Part shown: one piece after another, positions 17,982 to 32,042 of the stretch
How positions within the stretch are numbered: the first letter of the stretch is position 1
Layout of the letters: the number at the start of each line of letters is the position of its first letter
Made by a program: the position numbers and the translations under genes
DNA from: Bacteroidota bacterium
Lineage (GTDB): Bacteria; Bacteroidota; Ignavibacteria; UBA10030; UBA8401
Reading direction: 5' to 3'
DNA length: 64,000 nt
Assembly: GCA_035298825.1 (NCBI GenBank)
Contig: DATGXR010000444.1
Coordinates: 5,819 to 69,818, forward strand
The notes under the pieces: generated by a model
Database searches by the model: none
What the model was told of the DNA's origin: nothing
The model's input: the letters and a program-made list of their open reading frames with translations, nothing else

Positions 17982-18989
17982 ATGATTCAGCAGCGCATAG
18001 ACACCGCTTCTTCGACTGATGCAGACGCGTCGTGCCTTCCGGGCGCCGAGCGGCCGTTGCCTGTTTTTCTCAGCAGAAGCCCGGTGATCGAACAGATGAT
18101 GGCAACCATCTCGATGATCGCAAACTCTCCTGCCTCGGTGCTTATCACAGGGGAAAGCGGATCCGGCAAAGAGGTCATTGCCCAGTACATCCACGCCTGC
18201 AGCAACCGCTCGGCGCAACCGTTTATCGCCATCAATGCCGCGGCGCTGCCCAAAGATGTGATCGACAATGAACTCTTCGGACATGAGAAAGAAGCCTTCA
18301 CCGGCGCCATCTCGAAAAAATCAGGCTGCTTTGAGATGGCCGATCGCGGTACGCTCTTTCTTGATGAGATCGCCGAGATGCATCCCCAGACGCAGGCAAA
18401 GCTCCTGCGCGCCATCGAATCAAAGTCCTTCAGGAGGCTTGGAGGGAAGGAAGAAGTCACTGTCGATGTACGCGTGGTGGCTGCGACCAATAAGAACATT
18501 CAGCAGGCGATCCAATCCGGAGAATTCCGCGAGGACTTATTTTATCGCCTGAGCGTGATTGAACTGGCGCTTCCGCCCCTGCGCTCCCGACGGGAAGACG
18601 TTCCGCTGCTGACGGATTACTTTCTTGCTTTCTTTGCTCGAAAGTATGAACTTGCGCCGAAGACGGTGTCCCCTGAAGCGATGGAAATGATGAGCGCGTT
18701 CAACTGGCCGGGCAACGTCCGCGAGTTGCGCAACCTCACCGAAGGACTGACGCTTATGTGTCCGGATTGCTCGATCACACCCAAGGCGCTTCCCGAACGC
18801 ATCTCGAACCATGCGCCGCAGCCGCTGACGGTGTCGATTCCTGTGGGCACGCCGCTTGATATGGCCGAGCGCATCTTCATCAATCATACGCTTGCCTCTG
18901 TCGAGCAGAACAAATCGGCCGCTGCGAAAATTCTCGGAATCAGCCGCAAGACGCTTCACAACAAACTCAATGTGTTGCCCACTTCGTGA
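17982..18989 (+). CDS. sigma-54-dependent transcriptional activator (AAA+ sigma54-interaction domain + Fis-type HTH) lacking any N-terminal regulatory domain
   Basis: Walker A GESGSGKE. EAFTGA (GAFTGA variant). Walker B GTLFLDEI. Arg-finger region. C-terminal …KSAAAKILGISRKTLHNKL HTH. Start at the ATG at 17982 with AGGAAAGG upstream; the longer ORF from 17835 overlaps the upstream gene. Confidence 0.9.
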   Translation: MIQQRIDTASSTDADASCLPGAERPLPVFLSRSPVIEQMMATISMIANSPASVLITGESGSGKEVIAQYIHACSNRSAQPFIAINAAALPKDVIDNELFGHEKEAFTGAISKKSGCFEMADRGTLFLDEIAEMHPQTQAKLLRAIESKSFRRLGGKEEVTVDVRVVAATNKNIQQAIQSGEFREDLFYRLSVIELALPPLRSRREDVPLLTDYFLAFFARKYELAPKTVSPEAMEMMSAFNWPGNVRELRNLTEGLTLMCPDCSITPKALPERISNHAPQPLTVSIPVGTPLDMAERIFINHTLASVEQNKSAAAKILGISRKTLHNKLNVLPTS

Positions 18990-19059: not shown

Positions 19060-20091
19060 TTATTTTGTCAACACCATTCTCTTTACCGAGACGTACGAAC
19101 CCGCCTGCATCCGACAGAGGTACATGCCGCTGGCCAGACCTGCGGCGCTCCACGAGGTTTGATACCACCCCGGCAGCAACTCCCCATCGACAAGCACGGC
19201 CGAGACCCGACCAAGCATATCATACACTGTCACATTCACTCGCTGGCCCGAGGGAATGGAGAACCAGATTGAAGTTTCCGGATTGAAGGGATTCGGAAAA
19301 TTCTGTTCGAGCTTGAATTCACTGGCCGTTCGTTTCCCGTCAGAGACATGGCTCACCGCCGCTGTGGTTGTAAAATGATAGACGGAAGAAAAAACGCTCT
19401 TCCCATTCGGACTCGCACTCCTGACACGCCAGTAATAGGTTGTGTGGTTGTCGAGCATCAGCGTCTGCGTTGAGCACGCGCCCGCCACACTGCCCGAATC
19501 ACAAAGCGTCGCAAACAACGAATCACTCGAAAGTTGATACTCGTACCATGCCGCATGCGCTGTCTGTTGCCAATGAAGCATCACGCGTTGAGGCTGCTCG
19601 ATAGCATCGTTCACTGGCGTTAACAAAACGGGAGCCGTGGATACGTGCGGCAAGACTGCAGTCATCGATGCAATCACTGCGATGCCGTTGGGGACAAACA
19701 CATCCGGACCCGTGACGTAACGCGTTTGGACTGACGCATATTCGATATCCGTGCTGTGGCTCCAGAGACGGAACGTGATGTGCTCACCGATCGTGATGCC
19801 ATCCACCTCAGGGGTGAACACGTTGTCTCCCCAAACAGTCACTGCGCAATTCGTCCCATTCCAGATGACGCCTCCCACGCACATTCCGGAGACAGTGAAC
19901 GCACCGATCTCATCTCCTGGTGTCAGGCAGACCGTGTCGATCATCGGAGTGCTCGAGACCGGGATCGCCACGATCGCATCCAGCCCCGTGCCCGCGGAGA
20001 ATGAAAAATGGAGACACTGCGATCGTACCGAAAGCGGTGCAGCGATCATCAATGCCATCAGCATGGTTGCACGAATCATTGCTCGTCTCAT
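19060..20091 (-). CDS. secreted protein with Fn3-like domain and T9SS (Por) C-terminal sorting domain
   Basis: Signal peptide MRRAMIRATMLMALMIAAPLSVRSQ. C-terminus …FKLEQNFPNPFNPETSIWFSIPSGQRVNVTVYDMLGRV…YLCRMQAGSYVSVKRMVLTK matches the Por_Secre_tail pattern. Confidence 0.75.
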   Translation of the reverse strand: MRRAMIRATMLMALMIAAPLSVRSQCLHFSFSAGTGLDAIVAIPVSSTPMIDTVCLTPGDEIGAFTVSGMCVGGVIWNGTNCAVTVWGDNVFTPEVDGITIGEHITFRLWSHSTDIEYASVQTRYVTGPDVFVPNGIAVIASMTAVLPHVSTAPVLLTPVNDAIEQPQRVMLHWQQTAHAAWYEYQLSSDSLFATLCDSGSVAGACSTQTLMLDNHTTYYWRVRSASPNGKSVFSSVYHFTTTAAVSHVSDGKRTASEFKLEQNFPNPFNPETSIWFSIPSGQRVNVTVYDMLGRVSAVLVDGELLPGWYQTSWSAAGLASGMYLCRMQAGSYVSVKRMVLTK

Positions 20092-20161
20092 CGGTATTGG
20101 TTTCGTTTTTTTCACTGCATCGTCGTCACTGCAATGTGTCTTCGTTGAAGCCAACAGGAGA

Positions 20162-21982
20162 TCAATCGGGAAGAGGATTCGCCGGATAGACAAGCCTCAC
20201 CGGAGCAGAAACATAGACCATGTATCCGGCGCCCGGTTCGAGTGATACGAACTCCCTTATTCCCTTCGCCGGCCAGTAAATTTTGTTTGCACCGTTGACG
20301 ACAACAAGTTGCATATCCTTAATGCCTGCAAACGCTTCTGCCAGTGTCATGGAATCGGATCGCAGGTACGGAATGAGATTCATTCCCTGCTTGAGTTGTA
20401 ACGGCATGGTCGCCGGATTGATCATGCATCCGCTGAATGTGAGTGTCGTCTCCCTCTCGGCATAGATCCTGTAGCCGGAGCGTGGATCCCAGGTTGTGAT
20501 TGCGTCAATTGAAAGTGCGGGCCAGTACACGCTTCCGGCTCCATTCTTAACAATCACGCCCACCGAGCGAAGATCCCCGCAGATTGAACTCAACGATGAA
20601 TCATTGGGCTGAAGATAACTCGACACCATATTCCATCCCGGCTGCAGATGGACAATTTGTGTTGCCTGCGCCTCAGACGGTTCGACTGGTACCGGAGAGG
20701 CCAAACCGAGTGCGACTGCGATCGCACGCTGCAGCGGATGACGCCTGCCCGATGAGATTGTTTGAGCGGCATCCAGATCCGACACGAAATCGTATGTCAT
20801 GATGCCGCCGAAATGATTGGCATCCATCCAATTTACTTTTTCGACGAGACTCCGCGGCGATTCACCCACCGCAAAAAATTTCATTCCGGTCGCTACGCCG
20901 CCTTGGCCCCATCCCACCACGCCCTCATTGCGCAGAGCCGTGCCGCGTATCGAACGCACTTTGCGCACGTCATCCCATTCCTCCGTGCCGCCATTCGACT
21001 TGAGGGCTTCGATGCGATGATACGAGGCGTTCCCGTAATCAATGCCACCGATCGCCTGAAACAAGCTATCGACGTGACGAAGGACATACCCGAATGTCGG
21101 CACGCCGAGTCCGATGCGTTTCGGATCATGACCGGCGGCCACCCACTGCAGCGGCCCGCGCGTATCGTAGGCCTGGCCTTCGAATGTCGGATCGACCGTG
21201 CCTTTATGCAGAGGCGAGATGTGCCACGAGACGTTCGAATTGATCTTGCCATACCATGCATAAACATAATCATAGAGCTGCAGGTTGAACTGTTCGACCA
21301 TGTAATCCTGTTCGGGCGAATACAAGTCCTGTTGTCCGCTGCCTGCTGAGACCATCAGGAGTCCCGGAGCGCCCGAGGGGGTCTTCATCGTGTGAACACG
21401 GCGATGGAGCATGCGGATAAAGCGATTCACGATCTGGGATGAAGGAAGCGGAGCTGCCCAGGCTTCCCAGTCGAGTTCGACGCCGTCAAAATGTTTCCGT
21501 TCCGCCCACGTCACAAGCGTAGTGATGAAGAGCTCCGTACGCGCGGAATCAGCCGTCACATAATTTAAGTTCTTTGAATTGACCGCCTGGATCGTAATGA
21601 CAACTTTTACTCCCTTGCGGTGTGCGATCGTGACGAGTGAATCCAGATAGTGGGGATATCTTCCATCTCCCGGATTAGCCACACCGTTGAACTCCACGCA
21701 GACTGAATCCGATTCTGTATCCGAGGGCCGCGAAGGCGGCGGCCCGAACATATACGCCCAATAGGGCGCGGTCTTTGTGATATTCCCATTGTCGAACAAG
21801 ACCAAATGCGTCAGTCCGGTCCAATCGATTTCCCAGGGGGGCAAGGCATAGTCCGTCACGCCCAATGGCATCATCGACCATGTGGCATAATATGTGGTAA
21901 ACCATTTTGCCTGCCCCGCAGCGCTCAGCGAGAACAGGATACACAGCAGCACCCCCTGCAACAACCGATATGCGTGCTTCAC
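20162..21982 (-). CDS. glycoside hydrolase family 18 (chitinase-like) with about 280-aa C-terminal extension
   Basis: …FDGVELDWEAW… (DGxxxDWE catalytic motif, with E in place of the middle Asp). TIM-barrel N-half. Start moved to the GTG at 21982 (VKHAYRLLQGVLLCILFSLSAAGQ signal peptide), preceded by GGAGG. This removes the overlap with the next gene. Confidence 0.85.
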   Translation of the reverse strand: MKHAYRLLQGVLLCILFSLSAAGQAKWFTTYYATWSMMPLGVTDYALPPWEIDWTGLTHLVLFDNGNITKTAPYWAYMFGPPPSRPSDTESDSVCVEFNGVANPGDGRYPHYLDSLVTIAHRKGVKVVITIQAVNSKNLNYVTADSARTELFITTLVTWAERKHFDGVELDWEAWAAPLPSSQIVNRFIRMLHRRVHTMKTPSGAPGLLMVSAGSGQQDLYSPEQDYMVEQFNLQLYDYVYAWYGKINSNVSWHISPLHKGTVDPTFEGQAYDTRGPLQWVAAGHDPKRIGLGVPTFGYVLRHVDSLFQAIGGIDYGNASYHRIEALKSNGGTEEWDDVRKVRSIRGTALRNEGVVGWGQGGVATGMKFFAVGESPRSLVEKVNWMDANHFGGIMTYDFVSDLDAAQTISSGRRHPLQRAIAVALGLASPVPVEPSEAQATQIVHLQPGWNMVSSYLQPNDSSLSSICGDLRSVGVIVKNGAGSVYWPALSIDAITTWDPRSGYRIYAERETTLTFSGCMINPATMPLQLKQGMNLIPYLRSDSMTLAEAFAGIKDMQLVVVNGANKIYWPAKGIREFVSLEPGAGYMVYVSAPVRLVYPANPLPD

Positions 21983-22070
21983 TGATAACCTCCAATAAGA
22001 AAGAGAGTGAAAGTGGATACAGCGTGCCGATGATTCTCCAGGCACATGACATCTTTTGCACCGCGCTTTC

Positions 22071-24005
22071 TTAGTGCTTGGATCTCTGCGCAAACGGCTG
22101 GACCGAACGCAGACGGATATTGTCGTAATAGACGCATGCATGTCCGGGCATGTCGCGCCTCAGGAAAAATTTTGTGAAAGGCTCGGCTCCCGAAATCGGA
22201 ACGGTGATCGCATTCCATTGATCGGCTGTCAGCCGGACTTTCTGTGAAGTGTTGTTCGAGAAAACGATCTCGAGCAAGAACGATTCCGAGGGATAGGCAT
22301 CGAACGAGAGTTCCTTATACTCTGTTGCGAGGATCGGCGTTTCTTCGCCCCACGTGCCGTGTTGAAGCCAAAGCGCACCATGGTCTCCGTACTCGACTTT
22401 GATCGATCGTGAACCTGATTTGAATCGCTCCGTCGATTTAAAATTATTCACAACGCCCCAGGAGGCATCAATAAACGGCGCGCGTAGTTCCTCGTCGAAC
22501 ACCACAAGATCATCGAACGATGGACCTTTGCCCCGGTTGCTGACTGTAACGGTGATTTGCGATGCGCCGATATTATTTGCCTCATCCCATGCTTCGATTC
22601 TGATGAGATGGGTTCCGTTTGTCAGTCGCCAGGTATTGAGCGGCGCAGATACGGCGGGTGATTCTTCACACACCGGTCCGTAGGGGACGCCATCGATGAG
22701 AAATCGCAGGCCAACAATGCCGCGATTGTCCTGTGCTTCGGCCTTCAGGCTGATCACACCATTGATCGTTGCTTTTTCTTTGGGAAATGTGACACGCGCC
22801 CGCGGTTTTTCCGTGTCCTGTGTGCGAGGGCGAAGATCGCCCAGCGCGCGCGCGCGCGTGCAAACGGCAGCTGCCACACTTTGCATGAGCTGATTGCGGG
22901 CGCCCGGTTTTTCAGCCGGGAGATATCCCGCGCCCAGTTCGTAGACCATCACGCCGCCGAGACCGAGCGATCTGGCATATTCGACTTTCAGTCTGCAGCT
23001 CGAAGTATCCTCATATGAAATAAAGGTCGTGCCGTCGCCAAACCATGGCACTTGTGAAGAGTGATCCCAGTGCCGTCCTCGTTTTGGAATATCGCGCACC
23101 GTGCCCCAGTTGTGCTCGCCATAGGGACGCGAAGGTTCCACCGGCGGCGTTACATTGGTGAAGACTGTTGTGGTAAACGAAATGCTTACGCCGATTTTTG
23201 AGGCAGGATAGCCTTGGTCGAGCCACGACTTTGGTCCATGCCCGACCTGATCGATAGAAGTGCCGATATACGGTGTAAATTGGGTCGATGAAAAAACCGG
23301 CCCATTATACCCGGTGAGATTTTTCGAGTAATCGCCTCTGTAAAGCTCATATGTCATCGGATTGATCTGGTCGAACACTTCAACCATCGTCTTGCGATCA
23401 TAGGCCGGCAGCGGCGATTCGTTCGTTGCGGCGATAAAGATGCCGCGGGGCGATGACTGATCAAGCTCCTTGCGAAAGCGCCGGATGAGTTGATTGTGCC
23501 GCCATTTGTCCGCGAACTGAGGAAATTCCCAATCGAGTTCAATGCCGTCAATTTTCCATCGCCGCGCAAAGGCGCACGCGGCTGTCACGAAAACATCGAT
23601 GCGCCGATCGTCCTGGGCGATAAAACGCATATTGTCTGCTCCTGGCCCCCAAATGCCGCCGACTGAAAGAATGACCTTGACTCCTTTTTGATGAGCCGCG
23701 GAGACGAGTTCCTTTAAAAATTCGCCAGGCCGTCCGCAATCGACACCGTTGACAAGATTGGCGCTGTCCCGTCGTGTGACGAGCACATCAAGATACGGAG
23801 CCTGTCTCACCGGATTGGCAGAGAACAGCACCACATGCGTCATCAAAGAAAAATCAATCTCCGACACGGGCATCTGGTTATAATACCACCATGGATAATA
23901 TGCCGTGATCCACATCGGTTGACGTTGGGCCTCGAGCCGAATCGCAGAGACGCTGATGAGGACGCTCACAAGAAAGGCGGTGATCATTGCATGTCGTCGT
24001 CGCAT
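22071..24005 (-). CDS. glycoside hydrolase family 18 paralogue with C-terminal Ig-like and CBM-like domains
   Basis: Signal peptide MRRRHAMITAFLVSVLISVSAIRLEAQ. …IDGIELDWEFP… GH18 motif. Then an Ig-like segment and beta-sandwich-like tail. About 35-40% alignable by eye to the preceding GH18. Confidence 0.85.
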   Translation of the reverse strand: MRRRHAMITAFLVSVLISVSAIRLEAQRQPMWITAYYPWWYYNQMPVSEIDFSLMTHVVLFSANPVRQAPYLDVLVTRRDSANLVNGVDCGRPGEFLKELVSAAHQKGVKVILSVGGIWGPGADNMRFIAQDDRRIDVFVTAACAFARRWKIDGIELDWEFPQFADKWRHNQLIRRFRKELDQSSPRGIFIAATNESPLPAYDRKTMVEVFDQINPMTYELYRGDYSKNLTGYNGPVFSSTQFTPYIGTSIDQVGHGPKSWLDQGYPASKIGVSISFTTTVFTNVTPPVEPSRPYGEHNWGTVRDIPKRGRHWDHSSQVPWFGDGTTFISYEDTSSCRLKVEYARSLGLGGVMVYELGAGYLPAEKPGARNQLMQSVAAAVCTRARALGDLRPRTQDTEKPRARVTFPKEKATINGVISLKAEAQDNRGIVGLRFLIDGVPYGPVCEESPAVSAPLNTWRLTNGTHLIRIEAWDEANNIGASQITVTVSNRGKGPSFDDLVVFDEELRAPFIDASWGVVNNFKSTERFKSGSRSIKVEYGDHGALWLQHGTWGEETPILATEYKELSFDAYPSESFLLEIVFSNNTSQKVRLTADQWNAITVPISGAEPFTKFFLRRDMPGHACVYYDNIRLRSVQPFAQRSKH

Positions 24006-24069
24006 ATGGTATCTTGTCGGTTTCGTGATTGAATGGCGGCGGTTGTGATCAGCTGTGCGAAAAATCGGT

Positions 24070-26106
24070 TCAGGCAAATCTGGACTTCATCGGCCGCACA
24101 CACACACCTCCTGATGTATGCCTGCGGGCATGTGCGTCTTCAGCCACGGTCACAGCGTCTCCCGATTCACCTGCGCCGGCCGGTGCGTCAATGATGATGC
24201 TCCCACTGGCCTCCGTGGTATGCACGCGTTCTTCGTGCAAGATGTCTTCACAGATGACGCGCATCTTCCTGATCGGAATGTGATGTAGCTGCGCTGTCAG
24301 CCGAAGACGGGTCATCGACGTTTCCTTAATCGAATCAGAGCAAAGAATAATCTCGTCGACGCCGATCGTGCGGAGAAGGAATGAGAGTTTCCAATGTCCG
24401 CCATAGATCGGATAACCGTTGAGGGTCTTGCCTTCCAGCGTTGAATCATCGTCTAAAAATCCGATGGGCGAATAATTCGTCACTGTTGAATCCAGGATCC
24501 GATCAAGCATCATGATTCCGTTATCATCGGCGCCATAGAACAATACCCGCTTGCCGGCTTTGAGATCTTTATGTGACAAGTACTGCAAGACGCGAAACGA
24601 CATGCGAAAGCCGACAACAAGCGTCAACAGGAAATAGAAATCCAGCATCAATGTGAGCACGTGATCGGTCTTGAGTGGAGAGACAACGATGATTCCGGTG
24701 ATGATTGTGGCGGTGAGCGCGAATCCGACGCACTTGATCATTCGCAGCACATCGCCTAATCCCAAGAGCCTGAAGGTGCCGCGGTAGAGTCCAGAAATCC
24801 TGAACACGCTTACCTGGATCACCGTTACGGCAGCAAGCAGCTCCACCACGACGCGGGGTTGTTCTTGAGGCAGTCCATAGAGCCAGTGCGTGAGCGCGTA
24901 TGCGCAGGAAAAGGAAACAAGAATGAACGCGACATCAAAGAAGACCTGGAGCGCGTCCCGTTTCATCAACGGATGATTATAGAGCGGAAGAAATACTCCG
25001 TTTTGAAGTACGGCCATTTCTCTGTAGCGCAGTTGTCGAACACCAATCACGGTCGAGGCGCCGACGGCACCGAGCACAAATGAAGCGTCGAAATTACTCA
25101 TCACTGTCAACGAGAACGCGGTGATCCCGAGCGCGAACGAAATGGCATAGAGCACAAGCACCGCGTTGCGATGCGACAAACCGCGGGCGAGCAGTCGATG
25201 ATGGATGTGGCTCTTATCCGGCTGAAACATGGATTTCAATTTATTGAGGAGCGACGAATTGGCCGTTTGAGCATCGGGGAGGAACGAACGCAACAGCCGG
25301 CGGGCCATCGACAAGAAGGTGTCCATGATCGGCAGGCCCAGGGCCAGGATCGGAACAACGATTGCGAAGGCGGCCGAGCCTTTTGTCGATGAATGCATCG
25401 AAAGCACCGACAGGGCAAATCCCAGGAAAAGGCTTCCCGAGTCACCCAGGAAGATCCGGGCCGGATTGAAGTTGAACCGCAAAAATCCGATCAGTGCGCC
25501 CGACAGCAGGAGTGCCATGCATGCTGTTCCCATATCACCGTTGAATATCGCGATGGGTGAAATGGTGAGAAAAGCAATCGTTGCCACACCGGAAGCCAGG
25601 CCGTCGAGCCCATCGATCAGATTGATGGCATTCGTGATGCCGATCATCCAGATCATTGTCAATGGATAGTCGAACAGGCCGAGGCAGAGGGTCTGGTTCA
25701 TGAACGGAAGGCTGATCGTTGAGATCCTGAATCCGGCAAGATAAATGATGGTACTTAAAAGCAGCTGCACGAGAAATTTTTGCGCCGGTCCAAGCGGATC
25801 AATATCATCCCAGATGCCAAGCGCGAGCACAAGAAAAAGCACCATCGCGAGCGACAACCCCTCAGCAGTCGAAAGCCATGTCTGGGCGATTATCGACGAG
25901 TCGATCGTCACCAGCAGCAGGAACGAGGCGAAAAATCCCCCACAAATTGCAACGCCCCCCATCCTGGGCATGGCCTTCGTATGCACCTTTCGGGCATTCG
26001 GATAATCCATCGCACCGACTGCCGCAGCCAATTTCATGACCTGAGGTGTGAGAACGAGCGATATTCCCACCGACGCCGCAAACGCTATCATCAGATGTAG
26101 CACCAT
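24070..26106 (-). CDS. polyprenyl-phosphate HexNAc-1-phosphate transferase (WecA/MraY GT4-family) fused to a C-terminal TM + nucleotide-sugar-enzyme N-terminal-like domain (as in PglF/WbpM/CapD)
   Basis: N-half: multi-TM MraY/WecA-like (…DYPNARKVHTKAMPRMGGVAI…DGLDGLASG…). C-half: 4 TM then …KRVLFYGADDNGIMMLDRILDSTVTNYSPIGFLDDDSTLEGKTLNGYPIYGG… resembling the CoA-binding/Rossmann N-terminal region of CapD-type proteins. Start at 26106 preceded by GGGGAGGG. Confidence 0.85.
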   Translation of the reverse strand: MVLHLMIAFAASVGISLVLTPQVMKLAAAVGAMDYPNARKVHTKAMPRMGGVAICGGFFASFLLLVTIDSSIIAQTWLSTAEGLSLAMVLFLVLALGIWDDIDPLGPAQKFLVQLLLSTIIYLAGFRISTISLPFMNQTLCLGLFDYPLTMIWMIGITNAINLIDGLDGLASGVATIAFLTISPIAIFNGDMGTACMALLLSGALIGFLRFNFNPARIFLGDSGSLFLGFALSVLSMHSSTKGSAAFAIVVPILALGLPIMDTFLSMARRLLRSFLPDAQTANSSLLNKLKSMFQPDKSHIHHRLLARGLSHRNAVLVLYAISFALGITAFSLTVMSNFDASFVLGAVGASTVIGVRQLRYREMAVLQNGVFLPLYNHPLMKRDALQVFFDVAFILVSFSCAYALTHWLYGLPQEQPRVVVELLAAVTVIQVSVFRISGLYRGTFRLLGLGDVLRMIKCVGFALTATIITGIIVVSPLKTDHVLTLMLDFYFLLTLVVGFRMSFRVLQYLSHKDLKAGKRVLFYGADDNGIMMLDRILDSTVTNYSPIGFLDDDSTLEGKTLNGYPIYGGHWKLSFLLRTIGVDEIILCSDSIKETSMTRLRLTAQLHHIPIRKMRVICEDILHEERVHTTEASGSIIIDAPAGAGESGDAVTVAEDAHARRHTSGGVCVRPMKSRFA

Positions 26107-26277
26107 CGCACCCTCCCCTTTCACACTTACGAATTGATTCACCCGGCGTGTGTATGTGTGTGATGTTCCGCATCGCAATCTTTCTCTTGCAATGGATCAT
26201 GCCGCCCCCCGGCGCTGGAGAAAGATGTCATCACAACGAACACTTTCAACATAGAGTAATTCATGCGCCGATGCAAA

Positions 26278-26311
26278 TTAGAACACGCTAATATGAATTA
26301 GAATATTCTAA
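26278..26311. promoter_or_regulatory. second copy of the tandem palindromic operator: TTAGAA-CA-CGCTAA, 6-bp spacer, TTAGAA-TA-TTCTAA; on the minus strand followed by TTTGCAT (-35-like), 17 bp, TATGTT (-10-like)
   Basis: About 170 bp upstream of the WecA-like gene start (26106) and 82 bp downstream of the EBP-like gene stop. The motif, spacing and flanking GTTCTAATTTGC are shared with site 17082-17115. Confidence 0.5.
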
Positions 26312-26392
26312 CGCATCGTCACACGCCAAGGCGAAAGAGAAGGAGGAACGGCTCACCTGCAATCGTTCAAGAGGAAGAAGAGCGGGGGGCGT

Positions 26393-27175
26393 TTAGCGTC
26401 GTACGTAGGCAGGCAAATTATCGGGTTCAATCCACTTGCCAGGGCACATGACCGCGGCATATTCAATTGCATTTTTCAAGTGACGCGTATTGCCGGGCCA
26501 ATGGTATGCCTGGCACAATTCAATGGCTTTCGGCGAGATGCCGACAACAGTCGAGTTAGAGCGGGCGCGCAATTCACGTAAAATTTTTTTTATCATCGGC
26601 GGAATGTCCTCTTTGCGATCTCTGAGCGCAGGCAGTTCGATAACGAGAGGACTGATGCGATAATACATCTCCCTGAGGAGGACGCCTTCGTCCATCAACG
26701 CTTCAGGATGGCGGTTGAGTGTGCCGATGATGCGGGTATGGATGTGGATGAGTTGCTCGCCTCCGACGCGTGTGATCGTCTGGTATTCGAGGGCCCGGGC
26801 CATTTTCATTTGCACAGGCAAGGGTAGCAATGCCAATTCGTTGATCAATACCGTGCCTCCGTCGGCTTCTTCAAACGCTCCGCGTCTGAGCACGACACCT
26901 TCGCGCGTCACGGCTTCGTAGCCGAAGAGATCCTTTTCCATCATCTCAGGAGAAAGCGCTCCGCAGTCGAATGGCAGAAACGGACTGCGTGCGCGTCGGC
27001 TGAGGCGATGAATGAATCGTGCAGCCCATTCTTTGCCCGTCCCCTGCTCGCCCACCAAGACAACACTGAGATCGCTCGCCGCGACCCGTTCCATTATCTT
27101 GAGCACTTCCTGCATCGCCGCGCTGCGCACGATATCGAGATCACGTTCGTTCACTGTATGTATGGATTCCATCAT
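26393..27175 (-). CDS. degenerate sigma54-EBP-like AAA+ domain protein (no receiver, no HTH; GAFTGA and Walker B motifs altered)
   Basis: Walker A GEQGTGKE is present. The GAFTGA position reads RRGAFEEADGG. Walker B reads GGTVLINEL (hhhhNE instead of hhhhDE). Sensor-II/Arg region RISPLVIELPALRDRKEDI is retained. The protein ends right after the AAA+ lid. Confidence 0.8.
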   Translation of the reverse strand: MMESIHTVNERDLDIVRSAAMQEVLKIMERVAASDLSVVLVGEQGTGKEWAARFIHRLSRRARSPFLPFDCGALSPEMMEKDLFGYEAVTREGVVLRRGAFEEADGGTVLINELALLPLPVQMKMARALEYQTITRVGGEQLIHIHTRIIGTLNRHPEALMDEGVLLREMYYRISPLVIELPALRDRKEDIPPMIKKILRELRARSNSTVVGISPKAIELCQAYHWPGNTRHLKNAIEYAAVMCPGKWIEPDNLPAYVRR

Positions 27176-27260
27176 GATTATAATAGAGATAGTAGAGAGT
27201 GTATGAATGAGTTGTTAAAGCATGGGCACATGCGGGGAAGCATGTGCCGGCGCCGGGCGA

Positions 27261-28175
27261 TCAATGGAGCGACAGCGGAACAGCAAGCGTCACATAGTGC
27301 ATGCGTTCGGCAGCGACACTTGAAGACACTCCATAATCGATCTCGAGATAGCGCGTGAGAATACCGACTCCCGCCCTTCCAACTGCGGTCACGGGACCGG
27401 AGACGATACCTCCTCTGAGCACCAGAAATTTCCATGGAAAAAGTTCGACTCCAAGCCGGTAGACCAGACGCTCTTCGCCGCTGATGCTTTGGTTCGATAG
27501 ACAGATCGCGACAATCGGCCGGTCGTGTGTCGCCGGATAGCGCCAGGCAGCACCGAAAGTGACCGAGCGTGGAATGTTCGCCTGGGTCTCGAGGATCTCA
27601 GCTCCATGGTCATCCCGCTTCACGACGATGCCTGAACCTAATCCGATGAAGGAGACTCCGTAGGTAAGTGAAGGAAAGACCGAATACATCATACCGAAAC
27701 CCGCCGTATGGCTCGAAGCGCGCCGGCCGTTGAGGTCAACTGAACGAAAATTATAGACCATGCCGATCGCCCATGATGTCATTGGACGCAGCGCATAACT
27801 GATTTCGGCTCCCATCATCTTGCCGGTACTTTTCGTCCACTCGGATTGATCGAACAGCGCGCCTTCGGCGCCCAGCGCAACGGAGTGAGACTCGGTCGCA
27901 AGGACAGGCAGTGTGACGAGTGAGCGCATAAGACGTTCATCCATGCGCACGCCTGCGGTAGCAGTCACATCAAGCGACTGCAGGAACGCAAGACAGGCCG
28001 GATTCCAAAGCACACTGCCAGCGTCGTGGATGTCGGCGACAGCCGCATCGCCCAACGATACGCTGCGTGCCGAAGCAAGCGACTGCGTGAATGAAAAACT
28101 GTTATCCGTCTGTGCACGGGCACACAAGGCAGCCGCCACAATCATCAACACCAGATATCCGCCGTGTCGTCGCAT
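27261..28175 (-). CDS. outer-membrane beta-barrel protein, PorV/PorQ (FadL-like) family candidate
   Basis: Signal peptide MRRHGGYLVLMIVAAALCARAQ. N-terminal …SVSLGDAAVADIHDAGSVLWNPACLA… matches the PorV/PorQ-type motif (S.GLG.A.vA…D…NPAgLA). Alternating beta-strand pattern. AAGGAGA SD upstream. Confidence 0.6.
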   Translation of the reverse strand: MRRHGGYLVLMIVAAALCARAQTDNSFSFTQSLASARSVSLGDAAVADIHDAGSVLWNPACLAFLQSLDVTATAGVRMDERLMRSLVTLPVLATESHSVALGAEGALFDQSEWTKSTGKMMGAEISYALRPMTSWAIGMVYNFRSVDLNGRRASSHTAGFGMMYSVFPSLTYGVSFIGLGSGIVVKRDDHGAEILETQANIPRSVTFGAAWRYPATHDRPIVAICLSNQSISGEERLVYRLGVELFPWKFLVLRGGIVSGPVTAVGRAGVGILTRYLEIDYGVSSSVAAERMHYVTLAVPLSLH

Positions 28176-28256
28176 CCTTGCTTGTCTCCTTGAGCGTGAA
28201 ACCACAGATCCATCACACGATGAGTGTTCTTTTCCACCTGTCGTGTTGTGGTGTGA

Positions 28257-28970
28257 TTAGCGTGCGATCGAAAAGAGTCCGAACAAAAAAAGCGTGTCTC
28301 TCAAGTAGCCCGAGAATTCACGAATAAAATTTTCTTCTCTCGGCACATAGACAATATCGCCGGGACCGATCGTCGGCACCTCGGCAAAATTGCCGGTACT
28401 GAAGTAGCGCGTCAGATCGACTTCGATCGGCGGCGCATTCGCATTGCGGCGAAACACCTTGATGCGCCGGAGATCCGATTCGGATGTGGTGCCGCCGCAT
28501 GCGGCGAGGGCTTCAAGAAGCGAGATGGGCGACGTCAGCGCGAATGTATCCTGCCGCGCGACAGCACCCAGCATTACCACCTTTGCATTCGTGGCCGGGA
28601 GCACAGTCATGCCCACGCTTAATTTTGGATTGCGCGCAAAGACTGAAAATCTTTCGCGCAGAAATTCGATCGCTTGTGTCTTCGACAATCCTTCGAGACG
28701 AACTTCGCCCAGCAGTTTGACAGGGATCATCCCGGTTTCGCTGATGATGGCCGTCGTATCGAATTCCGGATACTCAATCACCCAGATCTTGACTTGATCA
28801 CCCTGCCTGAGCACATAGGCTCCGGAAAGAACATTGCTTGACTGGGATGTTGAAGCCTTTAAGATTGCCTCATCGATCACAACGGCGCGGCTGAAGCAGC
28901 CGGAAAACAATACTCCTGCCGCGGCCATGACCATGAGAGCATACCTGTGGACACCGGAAGAAATTTGCAC
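28257..28970 (-). CDS. polysaccharide export protein, Wza/GumB/BexD family (Poly_export + SLBB)
   Basis: Lipoprotein-like signal …LFSGC. …YVLRQGDQVKIWV… and PGDIVYVP SLBB-type motifs. Confidence 0.85.
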   Translation of the reverse strand: MQISSGVHRYALMVMAAAGVLFSGCFSRAVVIDEAILKASTSQSSNVLSGAYVLRQGDQVKIWVIEYPEFDTTAIISETGMIPVKLLGEVRLEGLSKTQAIEFLRERFSVFARNPKLSVGMTVLPATNAKVVMLGAVARQDTFALTSPISLLEALAACGGTTSESDLRRIKVFRRNANAPPIEVDLTRYFSTGNFAEVPTIGPGDIVYVPREENFIREFSGYLRDTLFLFGLFSIAR

Positions 28971-29418
28971 GCTATTGGACCTTTCGCAGGGGTGTGAAAA
29001 AAAATTTTCTTTTTTTAAAGAAATAATTTGACAAAATCAATCCACTCAGCGATATTACAGTATCTCACCTTTATCAACACACGACAGGCATCCGGTTTCA
29101 CTGTGGAATAGCCCGACGCTCAAGCGGGGAGACGTGTTGGTTCCTGCACCAAATCTACACTAAATTGTTTCAAGAAATGTGCCAAAAGATCGGCGCGCGC
29201 GGATGATCACAGATTCATCCTTGTTTTACGTCACATTGCGCGCACGATGCACTGCCGAAGGTCTGTCTGTACGCAAACCTTCAATGGGTCATGTGAGTCG
29301 TTTTTACACACATGCCACGATCGCAGAGTGTTCTTTTTACGCACATCCGGGAAGGGGTCCCGGCCTCTCATGAGCATTTTTTCTCAAAACTCGTCATGAT
29401 CACGCCATTGCCTTTTCT

Positions 29419-29434
29419 GGGCATACAGATTGCT
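29419..29434 (+). promoter_or_regulatory. candidate sigma54 (-24/-12) promoter: TGGGCATACAGATTGCT
   Basis: GGCA-N8-TTGCT with canonical 12-bp GG-to-GC spacing, 50-75 bp upstream of the wzz-like gene. A weaker divergent candidate lies on the minus strand at 29171-29187 (TGGCACatttcTTGA). Confidence 0.35.
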
Positions 29435-29484
29435 TTTTTATAATCTGAGTCGGCATCCATACCAATGCACTGTAGTGACAATGA

Positions 29485-30846
29485 TTGTGTACCAATCAAG
29501 GGGGAACCACCGTGCAGACCTCTCAATTTTCATTCCGTGAAATTGGCTCGGTATTCTATCGCCGGATCAAGCTGTTGAGTATCCCGCCCATTGCCGTTAC
29601 AGCGCTTGCCGTGGCAGTGACCTCCCAGTTGCCAAGGATGTACGAATCGTCCACCTCTATTCTTGTACAACGCAATGAGGTCCAAAATCCGATCTCCGGG
29701 ATGACCGCCACTGCGCCGTCCTACCAGATGGAAGATGACCCGCTTCGCTTCATCGATGAGATCCTCTATAGCCGAAAGACGATCGAGATGCTGCTGGACA
29801 GTCTGAACGTCGAATACCTCTCGCTGCCCGAGGCACTACGCCGCAAGCTTATCGACGACAGAATGTCCAATATCAAGATCCAGCGTCAGGCACGGGAATC
29901 CTTTTCAATCATCTACGCCGATGACGATCCGATTCGGGCGCAGCGCGGAGCCGGCGTGCTCGCCGATCTGTTCATGCAGACCACCTCATCCACTCTCAAT
30001 CAGCGTAATGAAGTCACCGTGCGCTTTTATGAGCAGAAGCTCGAGGAGTTCCGTCAGAAACTCGAGCAAAGCCAGGAGCAGCTCATGCCCCGGCTGCGCG
30101 ATCGGATGCAGGATAATCCGGCAGCCGGCACATATCTGCGCGATGTCGAAAAGCAGATGCAGGAGAGCGAAGCGCGCGCAAAGGAATTAAAACATGATCT
30201 CGTCTTAATCCGCGAACTGCCCGAAGATCTCTCCTCGAAACCGGCGCGACAGACGCTTTTCGAACTTTCCAGGCTCGACATTCCCTATGCGAGTGAATTA
30301 CGGGGACTTGTCACAAAGCATGACGACGCCCTCGGACGTTATACCGAACGCCATCCGGAAGTCACAACCGTACAGGTTACGATTCTGGAGATGCTCGAAC
30401 GGATGGCGGCCGGCATACAGGGCGAGATCAACAAACAGGAGTCGCGCACAGGCGATCTGCGTCGGACGCGGACGCAAATGATGAGCGATATGCTCGGCGC
30501 ATCGGCGCAATCCGGGCAGGAGAAGGAGTCGAATCTTGCGGTGTATCAACGGCTCTATGACGGCATGAAAGTGAAACTCGAAGAGGCCCAGATCCAGCGC
30601 GCGATTGGAAAAACCGCCAACAATCAATTCACGATCATCGATCCGCCCCTTGTGCCCTTGAAGCCGTCGAAGCCGAACCGGGCGCTTATTGTCGGAGGCG
30701 GATTCGGCCTCGGATTGCTGCTGGGGATTGTATCGGCGATCCTTTCCGAATTATTCGATTCGACAATTCGAACAACACATATCGTAGAACTCTATCATAA
30801 ACCGATCATTGCCTTTCTTCCGGAACGTCCGCGCTTAAAAGACTAG
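29485..30846 (+). CDS. polysaccharide chain-length determinant (Wzz/GumC/EpsF-like, PCP family)
   Basis: N-terminal TM, long coiled-coil periplasmic region, C-terminal TM (ALIVGGGFGLGLLLGIVSAIL). Alternative GTG start at 29512 with GGGGGAA SD. Confidence 0.85.
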   Translation: MCTNQGGTTVQTSQFSFREIGSVFYRRIKLLSIPPIAVTALAVAVTSQLPRMYESSTSILVQRNEVQNPISGMTATAPSYQMEDDPLRFIDEILYSRKTIEMLLDSLNVEYLSLPEALRRKLIDDRMSNIKIQRQARESFSIIYADDDPIRAQRGAGVLADLFMQTTSSTLNQRNEVTVRFYEQKLEEFRQKLEQSQEQLMPRLRDRMQDNPAAGTYLRDVEKQMQESEARAKELKHDLVLIRELPEDLSSKPARQTLFELSRLDIPYASELRGLVTKHDDALGRYTERHPEVTTVQVTILEMLERMAAGIQGEINKQESRTGDLRRTRTQMMSDMLGASAQSGQEKESNLAVYQRLYDGMKVKLEEAQIQRAIGKTANNQFTIIDPPLVPLKPSKPNRALIVGGGFGLGLLLGIVSAILSELFDSTIRTTHIVELYHKPIIAFLPERPRLKD

Positions 30847-30917
30847 CGCTGATGCGACCGTGCGCACGTAGCAACACAGTTGATCTTGTTCCCGGGAGCC
30901 ACTCATGCGGAGGGCCA

Positions 30918-31751
30918 ATGCAATCAGGTGTGGAATTCATACAGTCCGATGATGGTGATGAAATCGGGTCCGTTCCGCTTCATCGAAGCGATGACGATCC
31001 GACGATATCGCAAGCCGAACGCGTTCCCCACAGCCTTGTGCGTCTGGAAAAGAACGTGGTCTTTTCGCATGTGACCGGCAAGAAAATCGACGGTTCGACG
31101 GTCAATCACCAATTCTACGATCACTTCAAATACTCGCTCCTGCCGAAGGAGCATTCCCACGGCAAGCTCACTCTCGGCATCACGAGCCCGAATCAGGGCG
31201 AAGGCAAAACACTTGTCGCGGCAAATCTTGCCGCTTCCCTTGCCATGGCCAACCAGCGCGAAACGCTCCTTGTCGATCTGAACATCCGCCGGCCGAAACT
31301 CCATGAAATCTTCGGCACACCGTTGACGCCGGGACTCTTGGAGTCGTTCCACCAGTCGACGATCACTGTCGCTAAGACGCACATCAAGCATTTGCATGTG
31401 CTCTCGGCCGGAAACGCCGCAGAAAATGCGCTTGAATCGGTGCGCATGAGTTCGATGAAAAGCAGCTCGTCGTCCAAGCCATCGTCGACCGTCGGACTCG
31501 AACAGCTTACCGAATTCCGAAATGTGCTCCTTTCACTCGAAAGCAAATACGAGCTCATTATCGTTGATCTGCCGTCGATCAACGAATCGGCGATTCCGAC
31601 ACTCTTCACGTCGCAACTCGGCGGAGTGATTGTCGTTGTCAATGCCGGACGCACCAAACAGCGGGACCTCGAGCGGCTTATTGCCACGCTCAACGAAGGT
31701 CAGGTCATGGGATTTGTCTTCAATCGAGTCGGAAAGCACAATCTGTCGTAA
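30918..31751 (+). CDS. Wzc C-terminal-domain-like P-loop ATPase (BY-kinase/MinD-ParA fold) without a C-terminal tyrosine cluster
   Basis: Walker A LGITSPNQGEGKT. Walker A'/B …LLVDLN… / …LIIVDLPS… The C-terminus …NEGQVMGFVFNRVGKHNLS has no tyrosines. Start at the ATG at 30918, preceded by GGAGGG. Confidence 0.8.
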   Translation: MQSGVEFIQSDDGDEIGSVPLHRSDDDPTISQAERVPHSLVRLEKNVVFSHVTGKKIDGSTVNHQFYDHFKYSLLPKEHSHGKLTLGITSPNQGEGKTLVAANLAASLAMANQRETLLVDLNIRRPKLHEIFGTPLTPGLLESFHQSTITVAKTHIKHLHVLSAGNAAENALESVRMSSMKSSSSSKPSSTVGLEQLTEFRNVLLSLESKYELIIVDLPSINESAIPTLFTSQLGGVIVVVNAGRTKQRDLERLIATLNEGQVMGFVFNRVGKHNLS

Positions 31752-32042
31752 ACGGCCGACTTTCTCTTTCGCCAAAAAAAAGCAGAGACATCGATGACGA
31801 TTTTGGTAATTATCCTGTTCACTGCCTCGGGCATCCTTCTTGGCAAGCGCAGCTCTCATATGGGTGCGAAAGAGTATCTGATAATTTTTTGGATCACGCT
31901 TCTGCAAATCCTGTATTTCCTCATCGTGTTTTTAACGATGCAGCAGCCTCCGATCTATTGGTAAAGTGGACTCAGAATTATGCTCGACACACAGAATTCG
32001 CAGTCATCAACCATGCGGCTCCCTTCCCGCACCGGAGGCGGC

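Follow-up and report, generated by a model that had tools for sequence, protein, structure and literature searches.

A degenerate sigma54-activator AAA+ domain standing alone in the polysaccharide-export operon of a Bacteroidota bacterium

A DNA-binding domain is not universal among the functional enhancer-binding proteins (EBPs) of sigma54; for example, FleT, CtcC and FlgR have none. FleT of Rhodobacter/Cereibacter sphaeroides consists of an AAA+ domain only; its gene lies in an operon that depends on FleQ and sigma54, and the protein assembles with FleQ into hetero-oligomers (PMC7277832, PMC3162934, PMC10084136). Here we consider a 260-residue protein of similar build, encoded in a stretch of 64,000 nucleotides from the Bacteroidota bacterium assembly GCA_035298825.1 (contig DATGXR010000444.1, positions 5,819 to 69,818; the whole stretch is called the window below). 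The protein, which we refer to as the pseudo-EBP, consists of the AAA+ domain of bacterial enhancer-binding proteins (bEBPs) with its lid and nothing more. The residues that bEBPs use to grip sigma54 and to hydrolyse ATP have been replaced in it, and it belongs to a conserved family whose genes lie in operons for polysaccharide export.

The pseudo-EBP resembles FleT in that both lack a receiver and a DNA-binding domain, and the sigma54-dependent operon of FleT may have a counterpart in an operon with short spacers that is preceded by predicted -24/-12 (sigma54-type) elements in nine of nine loci. However, FleT was counted among the functional EBPs in a census filtered for the GAFTGA motif (PMC3162934), whereas the pseudo-EBP is without the Phe and Thr of GAFTGA, the Walker B Asp and the sensor I Thr. 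Furthermore, FleT belongs to the flagellar genes of an alphaproteobacterium, whereas the pseudo-EBP family belongs to a polysaccharide-export operon of uncultivated bacteria and is found in metagenome-assembled genomes (MAGs) labelled Bacteroidota.

Several bEBP homologues without GAFTGA act without sigma54, namely TyrR, DhaR, HupR and VpsR (PMC3162934, PMC6158489). They share with the pseudo-EBP a Sigma54_activat-type AAA+ domain in which GAFTGA is disrupted, and one of them, VpsR, controls a biofilm polysaccharide (PMC6158489, PMC3162934). Unlike the pseudo-EBP, they keep DNA-binding and sensory domains and work on DNA as sigma70-type regulators; because the pseudo-EBP has neither kind of domain, it would not be able to act alone as TyrR and VpsR do. 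Other bEBPs are controlled through their AAA+ domains. Those of PspF and HrpR/S are bound by proteins, encoded apart from them, that control the two activators; HrpR/S form hetero-hexamers, and inactive forms of RedR inhibit active ones via the central domains (RedR1/RedR2; PMC10084136). The likeness to PspF and HrpR/HrpS lies in the true EBP of the window, which also consists of an AAA+ domain and a helix-turn-helix (HTH) domain only. On the other hand, HrpR and HrpS are both required and both have an HTH, whereas the pseudo-EBP is without an HTH, and its residues for catalysis and for contact with sigma54 are gone.

A third comparison is with export loci. In the promonan cluster of Sphingomonas LM7, the ATPase PrmE occupies a slot by a beta-barrel outer-membrane protein (OMP) and a short Wza, beside Wzz and a kinase-like protein (PMC11340318), and the Wza, Wzz and kinase-like proteins of the window are distant relatives of XrtA-type export components from XrtA/PEP-CTERM loci. 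Loci of this last type are controlled by sigma54 through PrsR (PMC1569441). The likeness to PrmE and to the ATPases of XrtA loci is one of position alone, the pseudo-EBP matching sigma54-activator models only, and a further difference from the XrtA/PEP-CTERM loci is that no exosortase was found among the open reading frames (ORFs) of the window that were scanned.

The pseudo-EBP therefore differs from every described GAFTGA-less homologue in having no DNA-binding or sensory domain, and from FleT in having no activity motifs. Censuses of sigma54 activators discard homologues without GAFTGA (PMC3162934, PMC12316311), so the family would be invisible to them. A literature search found no description of a stand-alone bEBP AAA+ family lacking both GAFTGA and an HTH. 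We know of no such family.

Domain content, motifs and conservation

A Pfam scan of the 260 residues found Sigma54_activat (PF00158, residues 16-179, 2e-42) and AAA_lid_14 (PF25601, residues 185-259, 2.4e-22) and no third domain, and the last residue of the protein is one past the end of the lid. Searches with tblastn found no remnant of an HTH in the 214-nt spacer 3' of the stop codon and no remnant of a receiver in the OMP gene upstream (all E>0.2). No curated family fits in NCBIfam and Pfam scans. The NCBIfam matches are all below cutoff, fall on various sigma54 activators (PrdR, NifA, AtoC, NtrC and others) and are confined to the central domain of each. An AlphaFold2 (AF2) model built from the family alignment is confident (pLDDT 92, pTM 0.85) and retains the bEBP-specific L1 beta-hairpin (strands 86-90 and 93-97); the bEBP-specific insertion before sensor I is retained as well. 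Foldseek places the model with the AAA+ domains of FleQ, NtrC1, ZraR, FlrC and PspF, at TM-scores up to 0.88, the value reached with FleQ and NtrC1. By its predicted fold, then, the protein is a member of the bEBP superfamily, but it does not have the features that define these proteins functionally, namely GAFTGA and the catalytic set.

The motifs were placed by HMMER alignments to the solved bEBPs FlrA, FleQ and ZraR and by a second alignment, made with MAFFT, that included PspF and 49 canonical activators, and the two methods agree (Table 1). The original prediction, made from the sequence by eye, had described a stand-alone sigma54-interaction AAA+ domain with neither HTH nor receiver, in which the GAFTGA loop reads GAFEEA and Walker B reads NE instead of DE. 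The domain content and the Walker B reading (N112-E113) hold, and so does the loss of the GAFTGA signature; the hexapeptide named for it was the wrong one. GAFEEA aligns with G-R-F-E-L-A of FlrA and FleQ, G-R-F-V-E-A of ZraR and G94-R-F-E-R-A99 of PspF, that is, with the normal GxFExA motif directly before Walker B, which is conserved in the pseudo-EBP family and in canonical bEBPs alike. The true GAFTGA site reads AVTREG, and neither GAFTGA nor DE is intact elsewhere in the protein.

Several other catalytic positions have changed. The site of the PspF glutamate switch, N64, is D70, and that of the sensor I residue T148 is L153, so that the sensor I pair reads L153-N154. Of the bEBP catalytic set (Walker B D-E, sensor I T/N, R162 and R168), the protein has N112-E113, L153-N154 and L167, and only R173, the R168 equivalent, is kept. 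Also kept are Walker A K48, sensor II R231, GxFExA and the RxGG before sensor I.

Table 1. Features of the pseudo-EBP gene, its operon and the presumed cognate regulatory genes; coordinates are those of the window.
Feature	Position	Strand	Basis or remark
Pseudo-EBP coding sequence, sigma54-activator AAA+ domain and lid only, 260 aa	26393..27175	-	ORF, Pfam, AF2 model
Walker A G42-E-Q-G-T-G-K48-E, followed by family-specific W50	27029..27052	-	Alignment, family counts
GAFTGA-equivalent L1 loop tip A88-V-T-R-E-G93 (PspF 83-88)	26897..26914	-	Alignment to PspF, FlrA, FleQ, ZraR
GAFEEA (residues 99-104), ordinary GxFExA motif	26864..26881	-	Aligns to GRFELA/GRFERA of canonical bEBPs
Degenerate Walker B V-L-I-N112-E113 (canonical hhhhDE)	26837..26851	-	Alignment
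Arginine-finger segment: L167 at the PspF R162 site, R173 (= PspF R168) kept	26657..26677	-	Alignment, family counts
Sensor II R231 (= PspF R227), kept	26483..26485	-	Family counts
Stem-loop between OMP stop and pseudo-EBP start	27219..27254	-	dG -20.2 kcal/mol, z -4.9
Beta-barrel-type OMP gene, 314 aa, operon gene 2	27261..28205	-	No Pfam match above threshold; PorV_fam 39 bits (cutoff 90)
Short Wza-type gene (Poly_export and SLBB), operon gene 1	28257..28970	-	Pfam; best NCBIfam pepcterm_export, below cutoff
Predicted -24/-12 (sigma54-type) element TGGCACATTTCTTGAA, into wza-omp-pseudoEBP	29169..29184	-	Exact TGGCAC-N5-TTG
Candidate enhancer palindrome CATGTGTGTAAAAACGACTCACATG, about 105 nt upstream of the wza promoter	29290..29314	-	Related motifs in some loci
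-24/-12-like element GGGCATACAGATTGCT, into the wzz operon	29419..29434	+	Weighted scan
GT4 (WecA/MraY-type) transferase, 702 aa, with CoA_binding_3 domain	24070..26178	-	Pfam
Competent EBP without receiver (AAA+ and HTH_8; EAFTGA, DE), presumed cognate activator	17982..18989	+	Pfam, alignment
Stand-alone receiver protein, 252 aa, C-terminal extension of about 140 aa	17201..17959	+	Pfam

These changes are shared by a family. When 5.8 billion proteins were searched, about 72 homologues that stand alone emerged, with lengths of 245-303 residues and identities of 42-79%, all made of AAA+ domain and lid only; a count of about 70 refers to clusters at 90% identity, whose lengths are 245-300 residues. 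Their alignment has 20 invariant columns. The Walker A Lys is kept in 72 of 72 members, as is the Arg equivalent to R168, and the sensor II Arg is kept in 68 of 72; in 67 of 73, Trp replaces the canonical Leu after Walker A. The Phe and Thr of GAFTGA (F85 and T86 of PspF), in contrast, are kept in none of the 72, and the tip of the L1 loop follows a semi-conserved, loose pattern of its own, [LIV]-[TS]-[RWKH]-[EDN]-G-[VI]. At the Walker B position of D107, Asn was counted 47 times, Lys 12 and Asp 7, and at that of E108, Glu 43 times, Asp 16 and Gly 6; the pair DE is intact in only 7 of 72, and the other pairs include NE, ND, KD, KG, RS, HD, NH and NN. The sensor I Thr survives in 4 of 72 members and an Arg at the R162 position in about 21 of 73. 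The N64 position is acidic (Asp or Glu) in 71 of 72, in part a mirror image of the missing Asp in Walker B.

The pattern of loss is thus a selective one, as far as alignment can tell: the residues predicted to hold nucleotide and to act at the neighbour's site are kept, and those for the protein's own hydrolysis and for gripping sigma54 are lost. Because the L1 signature is gone, the protein is predicted not to contact sigma54; because other residues stand in place of the Walker B Asp, the sensor I Thr and the second arginine, it is predicted not to hydrolyse ATP itself; and because there is no HTH and no receiver, neither DNA binding nor input by phosphorylation is expected. The original view that contact with sigma54 and efficient hydrolysis were both unlikely is thus supported by the corrected alignments and by the conservation across the family.

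Two further searches were made. A profile search of 1.84 billion representatives was dominated at the top by multi-domain canonical or tandem EBPs and added about ten stand-alone family representatives; it also returned two HTH-bearing proteins (P0156 and P0157) that carry the GTGKEW motif of the family. A search of genome contigs with the family alignment gave, among the matches listed, canonical activators only, at no more than 42% identity. One apparent family member with an HTH_8 domain, P0070 (a Logan contig of 1333 nt), was rejected as a chimeric assembly joined at WPGNVRQL: up to this point it is 89% identical to the stand-alone protein P0052, and thereafter it is identical to P0390, a canonical activator with receiver, AAA+ and HTH domains. 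Binding of cyclic di-GMP in the manner of FleQ was also set aside, since the Asn after Walker A and the ExxxR are unmatched in the HMMER alignment, a weak test by eye.

As to the hosts, a protein identical to the pseudo-EBP has been recorded in a MAG at NCBI that carries the label Bacteroidota, and a locus with a 78%-identical protein (L001, GCA_050258555.1) comes from a MAG labelled Acidobacteriota. The latter label is probably a binning or labelling error, because this locus and the window both encode sorting tails of the type IX secretion system (T9SS).

Operon position and predicted promoters

The pseudo-EBP is encoded by the third gene of an operon, after a short Wza and the OMP. We compared the gene order in 11 further places, which represent ten different family proteins (42-78% identical to the one in the window) on ten contigs (loci L001-L009, L092, L093, L094 and the P0067 contig). 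The pseudo-EBP gene directly follows the OMP gene in all 11, the OMP gene is preceded by wza in all ten places whose contig reaches that far, and wherever the contig extends further, an operon for Wzz, a kinase-like protein, a protein of 55-57 residues and Wzy is found in divergent orientation. Homologues degenerate in GAFTGA and DE are therefore conserved and linked to wza in other genomes, a linkage that the original prediction had put forward as a check.

The gene after the pseudo-EBP is variable. In most loci it encodes the GT4 transferase; the exceptions are a 3630-residue adhesin (L005), a carbamoyltransferase (L008), an AMP-ligase (L092) and a methyltransferase (L093). In one lineage the cluster is split, with the receiver protein, the EBP, the genes for glycoside hydrolase family 18 (GH18) proteins and the transferase together in one part (L090) and wza, the OMP gene and the pseudo-EBP gene with the wzz operon in the other (L005); the longest contig is 619,252 nt for both, which suggests that the two parts belong to one genome. 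The unit of inheritance is therefore wza-omp-pseudoEBP. The identity of the pseudo-EBP decays over the loci as 78, 61, 53, 49, 44 and 42%, about as fast as that of Wzz and the kinase-like protein and more slowly than that of Wza and the OMP, and comparison of the sequences points to strong purifying selection on it. A profile search of metagenome contigs with the OMP alignment gave no matches.

The spacer between the divergent wza and wzz operons holds the predicted promoters. The element TGGCACATTTCTTGAA, directed into wza, is the only exact TGGCAC-N5-TTG in the window on either strand; 0.51 such matches would be expected per window and about 0.002 for this spacer and strand. Nine complete wza-wzz spacers were compared by a weighted -24/-12 scan. 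All nine have an element 54-214 nt upstream of wza, such as TGGCACATTCCTTGCA (L009) and TGGCACGGTTGTTGAC (L003), and all nine have a second element directed towards wzz, such as TGGCACGTGAGTTGCA (L005) and TGGCACGTGAATTGCC (L093). The second element lies 63-134 nt before the start codon in eight of the nine; L003 has only a weak match, at a distance of 10 nt. It is established that sigma54 controls export genes and loci of the PEP-CTERM type (PMC1569441, PMC12316311), and the conserved predicted promoters make the link between this operon and sigma54 concrete.

Between the divergent elements, several loci have TGTGT...ACACA palindromes, and TGTGTA(A/G)A motifs occur in L001 (8073, 8105), L007 (7931) and L009 (8005). 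We regard these palindromes as candidate enhancer sites. The assignment as an upstream activating sequence is tentative because the TGTGTA(A/G)A motifs are not present in all loci.

The spacer between the OMP and pseudo-EBP genes is short, 30-122 nt across the loci. In the window it contains the 9-bp-stem hairpin at 27225-27248 that had been predicted, with a 6-nt loop and four further pairs that extend it, and folding bears it out (Table 1). The hairpin lies 12 nt after the OMP stop codon, no U-tract follows it, and it may lower the expression of the pseudo-EBP relative to Wza and the OMP. Its position is not conserved, because L001 and L003 have only 30-39 nt there. Some other loci appear, by eye, to carry stem-loops of their own at this junction.

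The spacer on the other side of the pseudo-EBP gene has a different character. The consensus of Bacteroidota promoters is TAnnTTTG, and in the window the spacer before the transferase gene holds a palindrome, TTCTAAT-N7-ATTAGAA, followed by a box that resembles this consensus, TTCTAATTTGCAT (26271-26311, minus strand); equivalents are present in L001 and L003. The palindrome and the box are likely to be the operator and the separate promoter of the operon for the transferase and the GH18 proteins. Because the spacer has these elements instead of a -24/-12 element, the arrangement suggests that the transferase operon has a promoter of its own and that the pseudo-EBP gene is the last of the sigma54-type operon. 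A scan for sigma70-type promoters and for terminators gave 7 promoter matches where 3.1 were expected and 5 terminator matches where 3.2 were, numbers that say little, since Bacteroidota promoters depart from the consensus used, and an Rfam scan of 24000-32000 gave no match.

Possible roles of the pseudo-EBP

The original prediction had offered two roles, a decoy subunit that forms mixed hexamers with the EBP at 17982 or a regulator or assembly factor for export. Most probably the protein adjusts either the true activator or the export machine and turns on no genes by itself. The reading that we favour, tentatively, is that the pseudo-EBP is a protomer, blind to sigma54 and not hydrolysing ATP, which joins the true EBP in mixed assemblies and in this way feeds back on the transcription of the export genes, much as FleT does. 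It would be a cytoplasmic AAA+ pseudo-enzyme that probably binds nucleotide and presents an arginine finger to the neighbouring protomer. The competent activator without a receiver would turn on the divergent export operons; the pseudo-protomer, as the product of the last gene of the presumably sigma54-dependent wza-omp operon, would then accumulate and form mixed rings with the AAA+ domains of the activator; and these rings, with fewer sigma54-contacting loops and catalytic sites, would have an altered output. The outcome might be a damping feedback or a shift of preference between the two divergent promoters like that of FleT and FleQ.

Several observations count for this reading, among them the complete bEBP fold of AAA+ domain and lid, the strong purifying selection, the constant place of the gene behind wza and the OMP gene, the -24/-12 elements before wza in all nine spacers, and the precedents of FleT and RedR. 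Another is that a competent EBP, with EAFTGA and DE, is encoded in the same cluster or genome. In the window it lies upstream, together with a PAS hybrid kinase and the 252-residue receiver protein, and in L001 and L003/L089 an orthologue shares a contig with the pseudo-EBP; among its 120 closest listed homologues, EAFTGA is present in 78 and DE in 114. Furthermore, the kept residues (the Walker A Lys, the R168 equivalent and sensor II) are those that would be used for nucleotide binding and for action in trans on a neighbour, and the lost ones are those for the protein's own catalysis and for contact with sigma54. As a separate observation, this activator has the arrangement of a 'split NtrC', the receiver protein being encoded immediately upstream of it in the window, L001, L089 and L090.

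Other findings weigh against such mixing. The L1 loop has a pattern of its own and has not simply decayed, a hint that its partner may be a new one. With an identity of only 33% to the EBP nearby, the pseudo-EBP is not a recent or close paralogue of it. When the cluster splits (L005 and L090), the pseudo-EBP gene stays with wza-omp and not with the EBP. Finally, related export clusters have at the same position an unrelated AAA+ ATPase that is needed for the polymer (PrmE, PMC11340318).

If the pseudo-EBP does turn out to poison or to switch the specificity of the activator ring, it would mean that bacteria tune AAA+ transcription rings by means of dead subunits supplied from the target operon itself. 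Control of rings by dead subunits is so far known mostly from engineered mixing of PspF and NtrC1 and from FleT, which is active.

The last of the opposing findings leads to the alternative that stands up best, which we think possible though rather unlikely: the pseudo-EBP would be a non-transcriptional accessory of the Wzx/Wzy export machine, a bEBP AAA+ domain exapted as a nucleotide-binding, non-hydrolysing scaffold or switch. Its targets would be cytoplasmic portions of the machine, for instance the P-loop protein that resembles a kinase, the co-polymerase Wzz or the large initiating transferase of the GT4 type, in the slot taken elsewhere by an unrelated AAA+ ATPase. The constant link of the gene is indeed to wza-omp, while the following gene varies (phosphoglycosyltransferase, giant adhesin, carbamoyltransferase, AMP-ligase or methyltransferase), and the pseudo-EBP is as highly conserved as the core machinery. 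The best NCBIfam matches of its neighbours, all below cutoff, are export, chain-length and kinase families of the XrtA/PEP-CTERM type. In Sphingomonas LM7 the gene order is prmC (OMP), prmD (Wza), prmE (AAA+ ATPase), prmF (Wzz) and prmG (kinase), and deletion of prmE abolishes the polymer (PMC11340318). A Pfam scan of most ORFs of at least 90 residues found no other AAA/ExeA-like ATPase in the cluster of the window, and the conserved pattern of the L1 loop would fit here as well. Against this, the pseudo-EBP has no membrane segment or extra docking domain, all of its detectable homology is to transcription activators, and the analogy to PrmE is positional only. Moreover, the operon itself has predicted promoters of the sigma54 type, so that less has to be assumed for a regulatory role. 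A more specific version, in which the exapted domain is a nucleotide-sensing component of Wzx/Wzy export in the very slot of PrmE and the XrtA-locus ATPases, is argued by analogy and seems to us a little more doubtful again. If it were true, it would be the first bEBP module to work outside transcription, and a part in the export machine would account for the need of several Wzy-type clusters for a second ATPase-like protein, so far unexplained.

For either of these two roles, the protein is small, defined and confidently modelled (pLDDT 92) and so is amenable to testing, and its predicted promoters would link sigma54 control with a large exopolysaccharide locus in uncultivated bacteria of the Bacteroidota type.

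We consider it improbable that the pseudo-EBP serves as a decoy towards some regulator of the true EBP and not towards the EBP itself, binding the 252-residue receiver protein or another anti-activator and so releasing or buffering the activator. Parallels would be HrpG, which relieves the inhibition of HrpS by HrpV, or a mimic of the AAA+ surface that anti-activators of the PspA or FleN type target. The true EBP has no receiver of its own, a stand-alone receiver protein is always encoded just upstream of it, and anti-activators that bind bEBP AAA+ domains (PspA, HrpV, FleN) are well established (PMC10084136, PMC8528422). However, the case is purely architectural, the sequence cannot tell a decoy from direct mixing with the EBP, and in the split cluster the receiver protein stays beside the EBP, apart from the pseudo-EBP.

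Less probable still is an ATPase that remains active with relocated catalytic residues, the acidic residue at position 64 and the Asn in Walker B having in effect been swapped so that Mg-ATP chemistry is kept for a new substrate. The near-constant Asp or Glu at position 64 (71 of 72), set beside N, K, R, H, Q or D at position 107, and the intact Walker A, R168 equivalent and sensor II are what one would expect of it. Members of the family differ widely in the Walker B pair, however, with Lys or Arg at the metal-ligand position in about 17 members, and the sensor I Thr (4 of 72) and the R162-equivalent Arg (about 21 of 73) are mostly gone; conserved catalysis is unlikely because a catalytic function would not tolerate such variation.

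That the gene is a decaying remnant, a recent, truncated and functionless fragment of a full-length activator, as the loss of the signature motifs and of both flanking domains might suggest, is hardly credible and is effectively refuted by the conservation data: some 70 clusters of similar length and the same architecture and gene position, with identity down to 42% and 20 invariant columns, synteny in 11 places, an AF2 model at pLDDT 92 and no domain remnants in the flanks.

The surrounding exopolysaccharide locus

The window holds a large Wzx/Wzy-type exopolysaccharide locus. The Wza and WecA-like genes named as neighbours of the pseudo-EBP in the original prediction are both present; the likeness of the OMP to PorV/PorQ is only sub-threshold (Table 1). 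The divergent plus-strand operon starts with Wzz/GNVR, the kinase-like P-loop protein, a membrane ORF of 56 residues and Wzy_C, and these genes are followed by others for a methyltransferase, WecG, a flippase, a deacetylase, glycosyltransferases and sugar-nucleotide enzymes. As noted above, the best NCBIfam matches of Wza, Wzz and the kinase-like protein are to XrtA/PEP-CTERM families and are all below cutoff (pepcterm_export, 66.8 against 180; pepcterm_ChnLen, 143 against 279; pepcterm_TyrKin, 101 against 231). A Pfam scan of most ORFs of at least 90 residues in the window, at E-value limits of 1e-3 to 1e-4, gave no exosortase match, and the secreted proteins of the window carry T9SS tails.

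On the minus strand, the pseudo-EBP stop codon and the transferase gene are separated by the 214-nt spacer, and after the transferase come two large chitinase-like proteins of family GH18 and a protein with a T9SS tail (20162-24077 and 19060-20193, both on the minus strand). Genes for GH18 and T9SS-tailed proteins regularly accompany the initiating transferase (L001, L003, L007, L009, L090 and L093). This suggests that the polymer is rich in N-acetylglucosamine and has dedicated secreted hydrolases.

Two other genes of the plus-strand operon have their own peculiarities. The 56-residue hydrophobic ORF between the kinase-like gene and Wzy (31794-31964, plus strand) has no Pfam match and apparently encodes a two-segment membrane protein; an ORF of 55-57 residues is present at the same place in every locus (L001, L003, L005, L007-L009, L092 and L093). 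The kinase-like protein (30852-31751, plus strand) resembles bacterial tyrosine kinases; by eye, no cluster of tyrosines is present at its C-terminus, and Walker A' has D-L-N in place of the expected D-x-D. This protein, too, may be non-canonical or degenerate within its family.

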